64,000 nucleotides of DNA from Escherichia coli (GCF_003991155.1 NZ_CP031293.1), one strand, 5' to 3'. Shown: positions 42,916 through 64,000, counted from the first letter of the stretch. The notes: generated by a model from the sequence alone, not told the origin. Program-made: numbers and translations.

Positions 42916-43168
42916 TTACGATGCCGGGCGTGGGTTGTTGGCGTCCGGCTTTATATCAAAACAACTCTTAGTTATTGATAATTAAGATTAACCTCCGCCA
43001 TTAAAATAGTGGGCACTGACGAGCACTCGTTGTGCTTTCTTTGTTTACCATCCCATACTTATCTTCCTGAACATGTTCATATGCCAAAATATCTTCTAAT
43101 ACTTTCGTGACGCTATCCGGTTTATGAAATACACTGATGTAAGATTTTTACTTACAGGCGGGTGTAAA

Positions 43169-43420
43169 ATGGCCAGAACGATGACGGTTGATCTCGGCGA
43201 TGAGTTGCGTGAATTTATCGAGTCCTTAATTGAATCCGGCGACTATCGCACCCAAAGCGAAGTGATCCGTGAGTCGCTGCGCTTACTTCGAGAAAAGCAA
43301 GCAGAGTCTCGCCTGCAAGCGTTACGTGACATGCTCGCTGAAGGGTTGAGTAGTGGTGAAGCTCAGCCGTGGGAAAAGGACGCGTTTTTACGGAAGGTGA
43401 AAGCAGGGATAAGGAAATAA
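43169..43420 (+). CDS. ParD-like antitoxin (ribbon-helix-helix)
   Basis: MARTMTVDLGDELREFIESLIESGDYRTQSEVIRESLRLL... typical of ParD/COG3609-type antitoxins; the start is uncertain (alternative in-frame starts at 43124 and 43181). Confidence 0.65.
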   Translation: MARTMTVDLGDELREFIESLIESGDYRTQSEVIRESLRLLREKQAESRLQALRDMLAEGLSSGEAQPWEKDAFLRKVKAGIRK

Positions 43421-43421
43421 T

Positions 43422-43718
43422 GTGCGTACTATAAAACTCATGCCAAAAGCCAATGAGGATTTAGAAGGCATCTGGTATTACAGCTATCACCATTTCGGCG
43501 AACCACAAGCCGACAGATATGTGGAACATCTTTCAGACGTTCTCCAGATTCTGAGTAACAATAATATAGGTACGCCCAGACCTGAATTAGGCGAAGGTAT
43601 TTTTGTTCTTCCTTTTGAACGCCACGTAATTTATTTCCTGCAATCGCCAGAGGAAATTATCGTCATTCGTATCCTTAACCAAAACCAGGACGCCTCCAGA
43701 CATTTACACTGGAGCTAA
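43422..43718 (+). CDS. ParE-like toxin (RelE/ParE superfamily)
   Basis: GTG start 2 nt after antitoxin stop with aagga SD; N-terminal LMPKANEDLEGIWYY motif characteristic of ParE. Confidence 0.65.
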   Translation: MRTIKLMPKANEDLEGIWYYSYHHFGEPQADRYVEHLSDVLQILSNNNIGTPRPELGEGIFVLPFERHVIYFLQSPEEIIVIRILNQNQDASRHLHWS

Positions 43719-43820
43719 ACCCGCCGATTGCGCTACAATGCCCGCCCTTAAAGTGGGGGCACTCCCCTAACCGCTTCATCAGGTGAAGCGGATCTGACCT
43801 GTCATCAGAACGAGAGAATT

Positions 43821-59905: not shown

Positions 59906-60706
59906 TCACCACCAGGCGTGGAAGTGGTGAACCGGACCAATACCGTGACCAACTTCCAGCGTGTCGGCCTGGGCTAACGCCGATGAAAGCCAGCTTTTTG
60001 CCTCCTGTACGGTGTCAGCCCAGTTTGTATGGCGCGGGCGCAGTGCAGCCAACGCCGCAGAGAGCGTACAACCAGTGCCGTGAGTGTTTTTGGTCATAAT
60101 GCGCGGTGCGGTAAACCGTTGTTCACCCTCGCGGGTAAACAGCCAGTCCGGGCTTTGCTCATCATCCAGATGACCACCTTTCATTAGCACTGCGCCACAG
60201 CCCATCGCCAACAGCGATCGCCCTTGTTCCAGCATTTCCTGTTCGGTGCGCGCGTGTGGCGCGTCGAGCAAGGCGGCTGCTTCGGGCAAGTTTGGCGTTA
60301 TTAATGAAACATGTGGCAATAATCGACTGCGTAGCGTGGCAACTGCCGAAGGTGAAAGCAGCGGGTCGCCGCTTTTTGCCAGCATAACGGTGTCGAGTAC
60401 CACGTTTTGGATCTGATAACGTTGCAACCGTTCTGCCACCGCTTCAACAATATCGGTTTCCGCCAACATACCGATTTTAGTGGTGTCGATTCGCACATCA
60501 CTGAACACCGAATCGAGCTGGGCGGCGACAAAATCAGGCTCAATGCGATACACCGACTGTACGCCACGGGTATTTTGCGCCACCAGTGCAGTAATCACTG
60601 AGCAACCATAAGCGCCAAGTGCCGAGAAGGTTTTAAGATCGGCCTGAATCCCCGCACCACCACTCGGATCAGTACCGGCAATCGTCAGAGCGTTAATTCG
60701 TTTCAT
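59906..60706 (-). CDS. thiD: hydroxymethylpyrimidine / phosphomethylpyrimidine kinase
   Basis: 266-aa ORF MKRINALTIAGTDPSGGAGIQADLK... Confidence 0.95.
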   Translation of the reverse strand: MKRINALTIAGTDPSGGAGIQADLKTFSALGAYGCSVITALVAQNTRGVQSVYRIEPDFVAAQLDSVFSDVRIDTTKIGMLAETDIVEAVAERLQRYQIQNVVLDTVMLAKSGDPLLSPSAVATLRSRLLPHVSLITPNLPEAAALLDAPHARTEQEMLEQGRSLLAMGCGAVLMKGGHLDDEQSPDWLFTREGEQRFTAPRIMTKNTHGTGCTLSAALAALRPRHTNWADTVQEAKSWLSSALAQADTLEVGHGIGPVHHFHAWW

Positions 60707-60729
60707 GCCTGCACCTCCTGCGTCAATTG

Positions 60730-61491
60730 TCAGAGCGCATCAAGGAAATGTGGAACAAAACTGCCTGGCCCCTCGCTTCTGGCAACTGCGCGTTCTCCGG
60801 CTTGTTTCATCCAGTGACAGGCAGATGCGATATTTTCCAGCGTATCGCCTGGTAGCGCACAACAGGCAGCGACAACCGCCGATAATGCACAGCCAGTTCC
60901 TACCACTTTGGTCATTAGCGGATCGCCACCGTGAATGCCAACGATACGATGTCCATCGGTAACATAATCCACCTCGCCAGTGACCACGACGATTGCGCCA
61001 GTTTCCCGTGCCAGTGTTTGTGCAGCAGGTATCGCGTTAGCTGCGGCATCAGTGGTATCCACTCCCCGTCCGCCATTAGCAACGCCAGCTAATGCCATGA
61101 TTTCCGAAGCATTACCACGTATGGCGGTTGGCTTATGAGACAGAAGTTCCAGACAAAAACGGCGGCGATAATCGAGTGCACCCACCGCTACTGGATCAAG
61201 CGTCCAGGGTGTTTGAGAGCGTTTTGCCTGTTCAACGGCGGCACGCATCGCCTGTGCGCGTGGCTGCGTCAGCGTGCCAACGTTAATCAGCAACGCACTG
61301 GCGATTGCCGCAAACTGACTGGCCTCTTCGGTTTCGATGACCATCGCTGGCGATGCACCGAGCGCCAGTAAGGTATTGGCAGTAAAGGTTTGCACCACAT
61401 CATTGGTCATACAGTGCACAAGGGGGGAATGTTTGTGAAAAAGATGTAACGCGTGCGCAGATTGCGCGGAACTCAGCAGGTCGACTTGCAT
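60730..61491 (-). CDS. thiM: hydroxyethylthiazole kinase (C-terminus 9 codons shorter than the ATGA-coupled frame)
   Basis: 253-aa [21 protein letters not shown]...; in-frame TGA at 60730-60732, followed by 8 more sense codons and a second stop overlapping the thiD ATG. Confidence 0.9.
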
Positions 61492-61640
61492 AGTTTGCTC
61501 CTGCCATAACGTGAAGAAGCAATGACCTGGTGGTCCGTGACTTCCCTACGCTGGCATTATCCAGATCAGGTGATACGGGTATTTCTCAGCCTTCACGCAG
61601 AAGGGCACCCCGAGTCGTTTGGTTGAATCTCTATATTTTG
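61492..61640 (-). promoter_or_regulatory. TPP (thi-box) riboswitch in thiM leader
   Basis: Minus-strand leader contains GGGGUGCCCUUCUGCGUGAAGGCUGAGAAAUACCCGUAUCACCUGAUCUGGAUAAUGCCAGCGUAGGGAAGUCACGG... with CUGAGA thi-box and SD-sequestering stem. Confidence 0.85.
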
Positions 61641-61837
61641 TGCCAGCTTAGGGGAAGTGGCTTGCAGATGCAAGCTCGCCTCCATTAATTGCTTCTTCTC
61701 TGTGTACCCCATTTTGTACCCCATATCAGAAATGAAAAAGAAACATTTAACATCTATCATTCAGATGATAAAAACTATTGATTATCTTAATTTGCTAATT
61801 TATATTATTTATCTAAATTTGATAGGTGAGATAAAAA

Positions 61838-62077
61838 ATGACAGAAACCCAGATCTACGAGAACATTAAGCAAGCCATTAGCAGCGCACCACGAAATAGC
61901 CAAACGATGGAAATGCACCTCCAGATGATCAAATATGCTGACCATCTGAAAAAGGTTACGGCAAAAGAGTTTTGTGAAGGTGTAGGACTTAAAGCCAGCT
62001 TTGGTACAGAGTTCAGCAAAATGAGAAATCTTACCGAGCGACTCAAAGCTGCTGGACTTGACACCACGAAGTTATAA
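61838..62077 (+). CDS. hypothetical small protein (possible HTH regulator) of island
   Basis: 79-aa ORF in AT-rich DNA with ggtgaga SD; no family recognised; divergent from the minus-strand island genes. Confidence 0.35.
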   Translation: MTETQIYENIKQAISSAPRNSQTMEMHLQMIKYADHLKKVTAKEFCEGVGLKASFGTEFSKMRNLTERLKAAGLDTTKL

Positions 62078-62242
62078 AAAACAAATCATCAATATATTAT
62101 TTTTGTTTTCCAGACTTACTTGCATATGTTTCTACGAGCATAAAAAACAACAACCACCACATAGCTATTACCATAATAATGTTTTCCTTTTATATTAAAC
62201 AGAGAAATAGAATTAGAGCGTGGAATAGATGAATTCTATTTT

Positions 62243-62488
62243 CTATAACTTCTTGAGGTTGAATGTAGAAAAAGACAGCTCTTTCATTTCAATAACACCG
62301 AAATTTGATAGCTGTTTCAGCCAGAATTTTAAACCTGACTCAGAGCAACCTGCTCGATGTAACACATCGCTATATTTTAGCGGTGTTGGCTTTCCTTTAT
62401 AGAGGTAAACAAGCGTTTCGTAGGTGTGTTTTCCGGTGTCGTTACACTGAATGCGGTCTACTTGATTTTTTACTAAATATTGGATCAT
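62243..62488 (-). CDS. hypothetical small protein (possible winged-helix) of island
   Basis: 81-aa ORF 11 nt downstream of the 239-aa gene on the same strand. Confidence 0.4.
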   Translation of the reverse strand: MIQYLVKNQVDRIQCNDTGKHTYETLVYLYKGKPTPLKYSDVLHRAGCSESGLKFWLKQLSNFGVIEMKELSFSTFNLKKL

Positions 62489-62499
62489 AGTCCTCCTTA

Positions 62500-63219
62500 T
62501 TAAAATGGAATGTCAAAATCGTCCTCTTCTGTCTCAGGTATCGTGTATATATGTTCTCTTCCTGTAAATTCAGAAACCACTATTGAAATTAGCCTGTATG
62601 CCTCTATTTTATCGCCCTGCGTTTCAGCTAAAGCCCACTCAAGGGCTGCTTCTGTTGGCTGTCCATTCGGTTTGCAAATAGTGACACCGCCCCAAGGAAG
62701 CTCTGTTTTTTCCTGCTGAATAGAGCGTGTTGTTTCTAGTGTTTTTTTATCTTCCGTAGGGGGAAGCTGTTCAGGAACAGCTTTAACAGTAGATACTTGC
62801 TCTGTCTGTGGCTTTTCTGCATTTACAGAGGCTTTCGCTTCTCTTGGTGCTGTAATATGTGCATCTGTAAAGGGTAATGCTTTATAGAGTGATGTTTGAC
62901 CGTGGCGTGCCTCTACAGAAAGAACTCCCATATCAACAAACATATTTATAATATTGCGTACCTGACGATCACTAACCATTCCAATATTAGCTAATGTTTT
63001 TTGAGTAGCGTAACATTCTTGCCCTTGTTCATTGAATCCAGCTATATAGCTATAGATTTCAACGGCTGGCAGTGTAGCGGTGTATTCATTACCAGATGGT
63101 GAGTACCATTTTTTAAACATCTTCAACCATTGCTCAACAACTACATATTTTTGTTTACCATCTTTCTGATTTAGACATTTGGCTTTCGCTTCGGCAATTG
63201 TTTTGATATTTTTGATCAT
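62500..63219 (-). CDS. phage/island protein with wHTH-like N-domain and SSB-like acidic C-terminal tail (DDFDIPF)
   Basis: 239-aa ORF with perfect AGGAGG SD 5 nt upstream of ATG; low-complexity PQTEQ linker; final residues EEDDFDIPF resemble the SSB C-terminal tip. Confidence 0.6.
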   Translation of the reverse strand: MIKNIKTIAEAKAKCLNQKDGKQKYVVVEQWLKMFKKWYSPSGNEYTATLPAVEIYSYIAGFNEQGQECYATQKTLANIGMVSDRQVRNIINMFVDMGVLSVEARHGQTSLYKALPFTDAHITAPREAKASVNAEKPQTEQVSTVKAVPEQLPPTEDKKTLETTRSIQQEKTELPWGGVTICKPNGQPTEAALEWALAETQGDKIEAYRLISIVVSEFTGREHIYTIPETEEDDFDIPF

Positions 63220-63343
63220 TTAGTTCCTCCTTTGTAAGGACTGTAATTAGTAGTTCATTAACAAGTTTTGGAATTGATTTCCCTTCTGCCTTTGCGCGAT
63301 TTAACAACGCGTTATAAGTTGCAGAGTCAAAATTAATATTCAT
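63155..63343 (-). CDS. ribbon-helix-helix (CopG/Arc-like) small regulator
   Basis: ATG at 63343 with aggagaggaga SD; MNINFDSATYNALLNRAKAEGKSIPKLVNELL fits RHH beta-strand plus helices; 3' end overlaps the next gene by 65 nt, so the true stop/frame is uncertain. Confidence 0.45.
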   Translation of the reverse strand: MNINFDSATYNALLNRAKAEGKSIPKLVNELLITVLTKEELNDQKYQNNCRSESQMSKSERW

Positions 63344-63365
63344 TTGGTTTTCTCCTCTCCTGTTA

Positions 63366-63548
63366 TTATTCTTTCTCTGCTTCTGCCTTACGCAGTTCAT
63401 CAATAATCTTGAGTGCATCGTCAAAGCATTTTTCACGCTCTGGATAACCTCGACTCCTTGCCATATTACGATTCATTACTACTTGATGTCGTGTTAACTC
63501 ACCTTTTTTAAATGCCTCTACGACGTGTTCCGGTATAAACCATTTCAT
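63366..63548 (-). CDS. hypothetical small basic protein of island
   Basis: 60-aa ORF MKWFIPEHVVEAFKKGELTRHQ... directly upstream of the RHH gene on the same strand. Confidence 0.35.
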   Translation of the reverse strand: MKWFIPEHVVEAFKKGELTRHQVVMNRNMARSRGYPEREKCFDDALKIIDELRKAEAEKE

Positions 63549-64000
63549 AAAAAACTCCTTATTCAGTTAAAAGAAAAACACCTTGCAAGCCTGACGGCTT
63601 CAAAGTGCATTGATTTTGATTATTTAGAGAAGAATGTTTTTCTGTCCCTCTAGTACCTATTATTACATATAAATAAACATTTGTCAATATCTTTTCATAA
63701 AAAATCAGAACCTTTTCATGCACTTACATTTTTTCTTAGCGATTCGTGCTCTCCTGTGTAGTGCTATTCTTCATTACCAGCTAAAACGCTCTAAAACGCG
63801 TTCTAACGAAGTTTTGATAAAAGCAATACATTCTCTTATGTAATGGCTGTTTAGCTCGCCAGAGGCTTATTTAAGTGGCTTATTTTGTATTTGTTAGATG
63901 ATGATAGATATAAAACAGAGAGTTCTTAGATTAGTTACTTTATAAAACGCTCTGTAAAGCCCTGTAGTGAGTTTATATATGTAGGCAAAGCGGTTTCCAT

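Follow-up and report, generated by a model that had tools for sequence, protein, structure and literature searches.

Introduction

Islands and satellites that encode tyrosine integrases, of the P4 type and related kinds, reportedly enter genes for transfer RNA (tRNA) and transfer-messenger RNA (tmRNA) (Williams 2003, cited in PMC10121019). We describe here an element that belongs with the islands entering RNA genes. It lies beyond thiM, at the end of a 64,000-nucleotide stretch of an Escherichia coli genome (GCF_003991155.1, NZ_CP031293.1; the window in what follows), and is a small integrative defence island, already catalogued and hitherto uncharacterised. With good confidence, we assign window positions 61626–64000 to the leftmost 2.4 kb of a site-specific integrative element of 7.7 kb, and identify its chromosomal attachment (att) site as the thiamine pyrophosphate (TPP) riboswitch aptamer of thiM. 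As in the tRNA and tmRNA islands, the integrase gene lies beside the att site, the target is a conserved structured RNA with a stem-loop at the probable crossover, and the displaced part of the target is copied, so that the target stays functional; distant relatives of the thiM integrase also adjoin another stable-RNA gene, rnpB. The difference lies in the target, which in this case is no stable-RNA gene but the aptamer of a cis-regulatory riboswitch, within the 5′ leader of a protein-coding operon; the element must therefore supply the 5′ part and a promoter, not a 3′ end.

The element also resembles the satellites with defence hotspots, namely the P4-like satellites and the phage-inducible chromosomal islands (PICIs; Rousset et al. 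2022), in being small, in encoding a regulator and, at one end, an integrase, in combining a putative initiator with an adjacent origin-like region, and in having a variable slot for different anti-phage systems. It differs from them in that neither the P4 alpha primase-helicase, sid, psu and delta genes nor the PICI alpA, primase-rep and packaging genes were detected in it.

An island named 'rcnR-thiM' (7956 bp, 8 genes, RM_type_IV) was listed by Hochhauser et al. with the mobile genetic element (MGE) type 'None' (PMC10121019, supplementary file 4). It is not among the 41 named hotspots of that survey, whose main text makes no mention of a riboswitch and treats defence islands of this integrase-only kind as elements whose way of moving is unknown (PMC10121019). 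The listed island is the same as, or near-identical to, the one described here, with a shared layout of integrase and defence system; the att site, the integrase family, the replication module and the relatives in other genera, for which we found no description there, are worked out below. Full-text searches, with most subscription journals outside their scope, returned no report of thiM, any riboswitch or rnpB as an attachment site.

An island inserted into the thiM riboswitch

For the DNA past the window edge we used strain TCM3e1 as the reference, which is 100% identical over the island part of the window and collinear at 98.97% over the 22-kb overlap; coordinates of island DNA outside the window are those of its locus, L001. 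The GC content is 0.53–0.56 across thiD and thiM (window 60000–61599), drops to 0.385 at 61600–61999 and stays at 0.325–0.43 through the window end, in agreement with the original prediction, made from the sequence alone, that an AT-rich segment begins next to thiM. At least 80% of window 61641–64000 was found in 77 of 5426 complete E. coli genomes (65 of these at 99% identity or more), whereas the uninterrupted thiM–rcnR junction occurs in 4728. This part of the window is accessory DNA, not core, and, as had been proposed, a horizontally acquired island replaces the junction of K-12, where rcnR, the riboswitch and thiM are adjacent.

Extending the sequence beyond the window revealed the two features that had been anticipated there, an integrase, of the tyrosine type, and a second att repeat. 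The island, 7.73 kb in length, sits between thiM and rcnR with the integrase at its far end. An exact 82-bp direct repeat (100% identity) has copies 7732 bp apart, at L001 19904–19985 and 27636–27717, both of which fall within TPP aptamers; the PGAP annotation likewise shows two TPP riboswitches, the second of them immediately before the integrase. After removal in silico of the island and one repeat, the remaining sequence is contiguous in 4728 of the 5426 genomes, being 100% identical in AR_0013 and 98.3% identical in K-12. The insertion is precise and site-specific. The opposite case, core DNA conserved beside thiM with neither an integrase nor flanking repeats, is not what these genomes show.

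The left copy of the 82-bp repeat ends at window 61625, and element-specific DNA therefore begins at 61626. The island had been predicted to start at 61641, upstream of the riboswitch; its first specific nucleotide is in fact earlier, and the attachment repeat lies inside the riboswitch. A short tandem near this boundary, gtacccca-tttt-gtacccca, had been put forward as an att remnant. The motif is real and is conserved at the left ends of related elements, but it is ruled out as the att duplication, the true repeat being the 82 bp within the aptamer. The features of this end of the element, and the integrase, are as follows.

Window 61526–61622, minus strand: thiM TPP riboswitch aptamer, post-integration form (Rfam RF00059, 71.2 bits; gathering cutoff, 54.3).
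Window 61544–61625: attL, the left copy of the 82-bp repeat (exact repeat; right copy 7732 bp further on, outside the window).
Window 61546–61571: probable recombination core, ACCTGATCTGGATAATGCCAGCGTAG on the thiM strand, in the P4/P5 stem-loop of the aptamer (copy comparisons).
Window 61645–61673, minus strand: candidate replacement promoter for thiMD, TTGCAT-17-TAAGCT (conserved left-end block; overlaps the palindrome GCTTGCATCTGCAAGC).
Window 61660–61675: palindrome GCTTGCATCTGCAAGC (GCTTGC-N4-GCAAGC), conserved at element left ends.
Window 61704–61723: tandem GGGGTACA-N4-GGGGTACA on the thiM strand (gtacccca-tttt-gtacccca), candidate arm-type integrase or directionality-factor sites.
L001 26245–27552, outside the window, minus strand: tyrosine integrase, 435 residues (phrog_1 integrase, 1.3e-26; PF00589 on homologues, precomputed).

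From the thiM side, the island contains a gene for a 79-residue protein on the plus strand, a minus-strand operon (60, 62, 239 and 81 residues) and 1.76 kb devoid of open reading frames (ORFs). These are followed by a 183-residue serine recombinase, a 154-residue XRE-type regulator, a 115-residue protein with a signal peptide, a 241-residue HNH protein and the 435-residue tyrosine integrase. There are no tRNAs in the island, and a permissive Rfam scan of it gave nothing credible beyond the two TPP hits; an ssnA hit (E = 0.85) and a tmRNA hit (15 bits) look like chance.

Probable recombination within the aptamer and proposed replacement of the thiM promoter

Comparison of the two aptamer copies across related elements indicates where the exchange is likely to take place. 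The copies are always identical in their 3′ 26 nucleotides, ACCTGATCTGGATAATGCCAGCGTAG, and their 5′ parts differ when host and element differ. In Pantoea (L022), the 3′ segment is the only long block common to both copies, and in Rahnella and Winslowiella (L017 and L021) the copy on the integrase (int) side has a divergent, host-like 5′ part. We therefore infer a crossover within the 3′ segment of P4/P5, a placement that applies to the segment as a whole rather than to a single exchange point. The thiM-side aptamer is probably chimeric, with its 5′ part derived from the element and its 3′ end and expression platform from the host.

The two copies differ in quality. Those on the thiM side score 74.5–77.7 bits against RF00059 in five other genera, and 71.2 in E. 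coli. On the int side, two of seven other family members pass the gathering cutoff by a narrow margin and the remaining five score lower than it. The E. coli copy reaches 61.3 bits against the cutoff of 54.3, with two non-canonical pairs in P1. Thus, across the family the riboswitch stays sound in front of thiM but not in front of int.

Insertion leaves the native promoter candidate, TTTACA-17-TACCAT, directly upstream of the int-side copy, reading into int, and thiMD therefore needs a new promoter. The left ends of the elements share a conserved order across genera: the GGGGTACA-N4-GGGGTACA tandem, the palindrome GCTTGC-N4-GCAAGC and TTGCAT-17-TAAGCT. Position and spacing of the tandem are kept in one group of elements, group A (E. 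coli, Lelliottia, Enterobacter, Atlantibacter and Citrobacter), and a third GGTACA occurs in the int leader in the same orientation; this arrangement fits candidate arm-type recombinase sites. Elements of group B carry a terminator hairpin and a clearer promoter, TTTACA-17-TACTAT, identical in three genera.

In O157:H7 FRIK944, an integrase-less remnant of about 2.3 kb of a related element occupies the thiM–rcnR region (L004 11901–14271), with a single aptamer. This remnant retains a p8-like secreted protein. It lacks the native promoter flank, and thiMD is therefore preceded there only by element DNA.

We propose the following mechanism. The tyrosine integrase, encoded at the far end about 85 nucleotides downstream of the second aptamer copy, would recombine the element aptamer (attP) with the host aptamer (attB) in the P4/P5 segment ACCTGATCTGGATAATGCCAGCGTAG, as suggested by the copy comparisons. 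Because insertion cuts thiMD off from its own promoter, the element brings a sequence that would act as a replacement promoter, together with the 5′ three-quarters of the aptamer, and thiMD would stay behind an intact riboswitch. The host promoter and an aptamer with a weakened P1 are left before int as a by-product.

That leftover could have been put to use: the host thiM promoter and the retained aptamer might control int, so that integration and excision respond to TPP. The score of the E. coli int-side aptamer, still above the Rfam cutoff, and the native promoter candidate reading into int are both in favour of such co-option, and the 83-nucleotide int leader is predicted to be able to form a helix, CUCUUUUUG/ACAAAAAGGG, which would sequester the Shine-Dalgarno sequence. 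However, the scores of the other members, mostly below the cutoff, speak against it, as does the replacement of the P1 3′ strand by element sequence that pairs poorly. Sequence conservation of the leader helices is not accompanied by covariation, and these helices coincide in part with candidate sites for integrase binding. Moreover, the layout of an RNA gene, about 90 nucleotides and int is also found in relatives that target rnpB (see below), so it is ancestral and not designed for TPP sensing. For these reasons, low int-side scores and an ancestral layout, we rejected TPP control of the integrase as the main model for the family, and we consider co-option very unlikely. We return to the reading of the int-side aptamer as a by-product of integration.

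The integrase family and its probable structured-RNA targets

Homologues of the integrase at 64–84% identity are spread over Enterobacterales. In species-representative genomes, a TPP aptamer ends about 85 nucleotides upstream of the integrase start, on the same strand, at all 22 loci with a complete homologue (22 species). A second aptamer copy follows 3.4–11 kb downstream in many of these loci, and then thiM in nine, with thiD also detected in eight of the nine. The integrase is the sole gene conserved across these enterobacterial elements. Members of the family are inserted in this riboswitch in more than 15 genera, and some of them stand in tandem. At five loci (L008, L009, L013, L025 and L027), the DNA upstream of the int-side aptamer is the conserved left end of another element, not host DNA, which implies tandem arrays at the thiM riboswitch with one extra aptamer per element.

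More distant relatives of the integrase, at 29–36% identity, come from marine Gammaproteobacteria (L030–L043). In 12 of 15 loci the gene for RNase P RNA, rnpB, closely precedes them in an arrangement like that of the aptamer, about 90–900 nucleotides upstream of the integrase, and at one locus (L032) part of rnpB occurs again after another 3.2 kb. An attachment site of the sister clade in rnpB is suggested by this pattern. With a TPP aptamer beside the enterobacterial integrases and rnpB beside their relatives, the clade therefore appears to target structured-RNA sequences, the enterobacterial branch using the thiM aptamer. A search of PDB sequences with the integrase gave no useful match.

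Defence cargo

The 241-residue HNH protein encoded beside the integrase contains a McrA-type nuclease domain in residues 141–232 (PDB 6GHC, E = 5.5e-23; PADLOC mREase_IV, 1.3e-23), and its residues 1–140 have no family match. E. coli McrA is a type IV, 5-methylcytosine-specific nuclease of the e14 prophage; the likeness lies in the C-terminal HNH domain, and both proteins are carried by integrated mobile elements. They differ in that the N-terminal 140 residues of the cargo protein have no detectable similarity to the part of McrA that recognises modified DNA.

The same slot is filled differently elsewhere. Strain 58-3 has the same backbone with GmrSD in the cargo slot, and in other genera the slot holds AbiU/AIPR-like genes, PDC-S25 with PD-Lambda-2, an OLD/Gabija-like ATPase-nuclease, a type II restriction-modification system, or PD-Lambda-2. 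Defence systems were found in five of six elements sampled from other genera. By homology, the slot beside int is one for anti-phage defence, occupied here by a putative McrA-like HNH type IV restriction nuclease.

The putative replication module and the non-coding region

Parts of the island recur at another locus. Elements of 12–13 kb in the tRNA-Thr locus thrW beside proA (L005, L048, L049, L050 and L051) have a different integrase and the same Rep operon and non-coding region. The features of this module in the window are the following.

Window 61838–62077, plus strand: p1, a 79-residue HTH_73 protein of the conserved left-end module (Pfam PF24718, E = 1.1e-30; phrog_30666).
Window 62243–62488, minus strand: p2, 81 residues, last gene of the replication operon (ORF; PGAP-annotated; homologous position in thrW elements).
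Window 62500–63219, minus strand: Rep, a putative initiator of 239 residues with an N-terminal winged helix-turn-helix (wHTH) domain like those of lambda O and DnaD (phrog_270, 186 and 345 at 4e-7 to 1e-5, residues 39–173).
Window 63155–63343, minus strand: p4, 62 residues, possibly a ribbon-helix-helix protein (ORF; phrog_36888, 1.8e-4; Pfam FitA-like ribbon-helix-helix, E = 0.29; unannotated here by PGAP).
Window 63366–63548, minus strand: p5, a basic protein of 60 residues, first gene of the replication operon (ORF; PGAP-annotated; position kept in thrW elements).
Window 63549–64000, continuing to L001 23672: start of the 1.76-kb non-coding region, a candidate origin and regulatory region (no ORF of 60 residues or more).
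Window 63659–63687, minus strand: candidate sigma-70 promoter, close to consensus, for the p5-p4-rep-p2 operon; TTGACA-17-AATAAT, preceded by a TG (best promoter-scan hit, 11 of 12 matches).

All the small ORFs named in the original prediction are present at the sizes given there, p4 having 62 residues from an ATG at 63343. The 79-residue ORF, described as divergent, is instead convergent with the minus-strand operon. The ribbon-helix-helix assignment of p4 is weakly supported by the Pfam match above. A wHTH domain is indeed present in the 239-residue protein, for which a replication initiator is the best reading.

Copies of p1 that are 92–94% identical adjoin the far aptamer at two loci (L008 and L015), and homologues at 83% identity lie directly downstream of a tyrosine recombinase on large plasmids (IncY pCP53-92k, L075 4062–4301). 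From this position, p1 may be a recombinase accessory or directionality factor. We found no PHROG, NCBIfam or Pfam match for p2, and no family match for p5 in PHROG and Pfam searches. The p4 frame overlaps the start of Rep by 65 nucleotides in another frame, and both the thrW elements and phage PaulScherrer have annotated homologues of it. It is probably a real gene, because this virulent phage annotates a 61-residue gene that is 100% identical over 166 nucleotides. The phage gene, of the p4 type, is bas60_0101 (L003 2968–3153).

The C-terminal tail of Rep is acidic and ends in DFDIPF. Comparison of this Rep with those at L005, L006 and L048–L051 reveals mosaics, in which N-terminal wHTH types occur in varying combinations with two or three C-terminal types, and all the compared proteins end in an acidic-hydrophobic tail, DFDIPF or YDSLPF. 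The tail resembles that of the E. coli single-stranded DNA-binding protein, and might serve as a handle for host replisome proteins.

The non-coding region is found in 714 of the 5426 genomes and is annotated in none. It contains AT-rich repeats and six AATTACAC/GTGTAAT sites, which within the island are confined to it. Its first 1.2 kb is 93–95% identical between thiM and thrW elements, whose Rep genes are too diverged to align. The economical reading is an iteron-type replication origin, and the excised element would probably replicate from its own O/DnaD-like initiator and this adjacent iteron-rich region.

The centre of the region might instead be a structured RNA. Its 441 nucleotides (L001 22640–23080, outside the window) fold with z = −8.7 and are 95.5–100% identical across 15 loci, and two alternative centre types, which have short motifs in common with it, are likewise strongly structured. 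Part of the folding signal is supplied by three inverted AATTACAC pairs, which resemble protein-binding palindromes. Among 14 distinct centre sequences (95.5–100% identical), 18 of 55 variable columns are paired, against 62% of all columns, a depletion of variation at paired positions, and there are no double compensatory changes. Four changes are wobble switches that keep the pairing on the plus strand only. Against the iteron-type reading, however, the centre type follows the C-terminal type of Rep, not the N-terminal type, in seven sequences. On balance we would not expect the centre to be a structured RNA.

The island also encodes a DNA invertase, the 183-residue serine recombinase. No AAACCNNGGTTT-type crossover core was found in the island within two mismatches. 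A hix-like 11-nucleotide half-site occurs as an inverted pair, TGATCAAAAAT, with one copy at the Rep start codon (window 63208–63226, L001 21568–21586) and a second near the invertase end of the non-coding region (L001 23400–23418). If the invertase acts on this pair, inversion would uncouple rep from its promoter.

Outside the island, a ParD/ParE toxin-antitoxin pair is annotated between yegP and yegQ in the reference (L001 1483–2077, corresponding to about window 43120–43720). It is probably present in the window too, which is collinear with the reference at 99% identity.

Mobility and mode of transfer

Several observations weigh against the view of the locus as a functional integrative element that replaces the thiM promoter. 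The window ends short of the integrase, whose presence in this genome is deduced from the 77 genomes with the window part and the 80 with the full island. We found no excised circle, attP junction or free replicon in the plasmid search of PLSDB, in which plasmid matches were fragments only, and present mobility is therefore deduced from structure and patchy distribution. The 65 near-identical copies could partly reflect clonal descent and not recent transfer, and no excisionase was identified in the element. In the E. coli element, a strict sigma-70 consensus scan did not pick up the replacement promoter of thiM; the sequence proposed for its conservation, TTGCAT-17-TAAGCT, matches the consensus weakly. 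The Rep assignment comes from moderate E-values (4e-7 to 1e-5), with no PDB hits.

On a rival view, the locus is what is left of a degraded prophage or island, no longer mobile and now passed on by vertical descent alone. It encodes no structural or transfer genes, O157:H7 and numerous further genomes have truncated leftovers without an integrase at this site, and the site is interrupted in about 700 E. coli genomes, with the full element in only 80. Against this stand the perfect att repeats and the intact integrase, Rep and invertase ORFs, as well as the exchange of cargo, HNH or GmrSD by strain, on one backbone. Insertions of related elements into this one riboswitch in more than 15 genera, some of them in tandem, demand that site-specific integration has happened repeatedly and recently. 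We regard an immobile remnant as highly improbable, and consider below how an integrative element of this kind might move between cells.

The segment had been called phage-like. None of the element's 10 proteins matched a capsid, tail, terminase or lysis protein (PHROGs, NCBIfam), and BLASTN against phages gave only fragments of at most 390 nucleotides, in virulent Justusliebigvirus genomes, so the term does not describe the element well. The P4-like hallmarks (alpha primase-helicase, sid, psu, delta and epsilon) gave no PHROG or NCBIfam hits. Of the features of PICIs and capsid-forming PICIs, the element has int, an XRE regulator and a putative initiator with an origin-like region; its length is 7.7 kb, compared with about 10–15 kb, and no primase, AlpA, terS, ppi, rpp or capsid genes were found in it. 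Searches of PHROGs, NCBIfam and Pfam returned no relaxase, oriT-associated protein, coupling protein or VirB/type IV secretion gene. We rejected membership of the prophages, P4-like satellites, PICIs and integrative conjugative or mobilisable elements, their hallmark genes being absent from these searches, and a free plasmid form was not found in PLSDB.

For movement between cells, the leading guess is that a helper phage would carry the element. As a true phage satellite, it would be triggered to excise and replicate by a helper, possibly a virulent myophage of the Justusliebigvirus type, which would package the 7.7 kb, with the cargo guarding host and satellite against other phages. In favour of this, the 12–13-kb thrW elements, which encode major capsid, tape-measure-like and tail-fibre-like proteins, share the module of Rep and non-coding DNA at 93–94% identity, and the thrW capsid protein is distantly related (24–27% identity) to capsids of large virulent myophages. 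Justusliebigvirus genomes carry pieces of the Rep and p4 genes at 97–100% identity, which implies recombination within one cell, and the phage protein inny_184 has two Rep-type wHTH domains in tandem. Small size with int, a rep-ori module and a variable defence slot is typical of satellites (PMC10121019). However, the phage-shared fragments show contact, not helper dependence, and the thiM element lacks packaging, capsid-remodelling, terS, cos and AlpA-type genes. The survey that lists the island reports screening with SatelliteFinder and gives it the MGE type 'None' (PMC10121019). The elements of other genera consist of int and cargo only (3.4–3.7 kb), without a replication module, so satellite behaviour is not a family trait. 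We treat satellite status as a tentative and rather unlikely proposal.

Two of these comparisons deserve a description of their own. The thrW elements look like an unclassified capsid-encoding satellite. The inny_184 protein of phage inny (L002 2640–3743) has 367 residues, with two different wHTH domains joined by the island's linker and without the C-terminal domain of Rep; it may act as a captured decoy or as a factor directed against satellites. A fuller scheme, which we put forward as speculative and distinctly unlikely, would make the thiM element and its thrW relatives an undescribed satellite family of large virulent myophages of the Justusliebigvirus type. Their exceptionally conserved common non-coding core would encode a structured RNA of about 430 nucleotides, or an equivalent folded origin, for replication or packaging, and inny_184 would be a counter-measure in an arms race behind the shuffling of Rep N-termini.

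Transfer by conjugation, as an integrative mobilisable element that uses the machinery of another element, would suit the combination of a serine recombinase and Rep, which is compatible with a plasmid-like intermediate, and the survey places several integrase-only defence islands in a grey zone (PMC10121019). The absence of relaxase, oriT-associated, coupling or VirB-type genes from the searches above and the fragmentary plasmid hits make this very improbable. Overall, we would sooner bet against than for each of three proposals: that TPP controls the integrase, that the element is a satellite, and that its non-coding region encodes a large RNA.

Implications

The thiM element extends the preference of integrative elements for conserved structured-RNA genes, known for tRNA and tmRNA, to a cis-regulatory riboswitch. 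It indicates what the harmless use of such a site demands, namely a surrogate promoter and the greater part of a working aptamer. Hundreds of E. coli genomes, among them that with the O157:H7 remnant, consequently have mobile-element DNA in place of the native promoter region before thiMD, which includes the thiamine-pathway kinase gene thiD. The integrase and its att site form a compact, portable pair, with a target that is conserved across Enterobacterales, and the exchangeable anti-phage cargo slot is an addition to the map of defence islands. Where a 'TPP riboswitch' is annotated in duplicate, the annotation may point to att sites and not to regulators. Finally, the relatives that target rnpB provide a natural system for jumps of target specificity between RNA genes.

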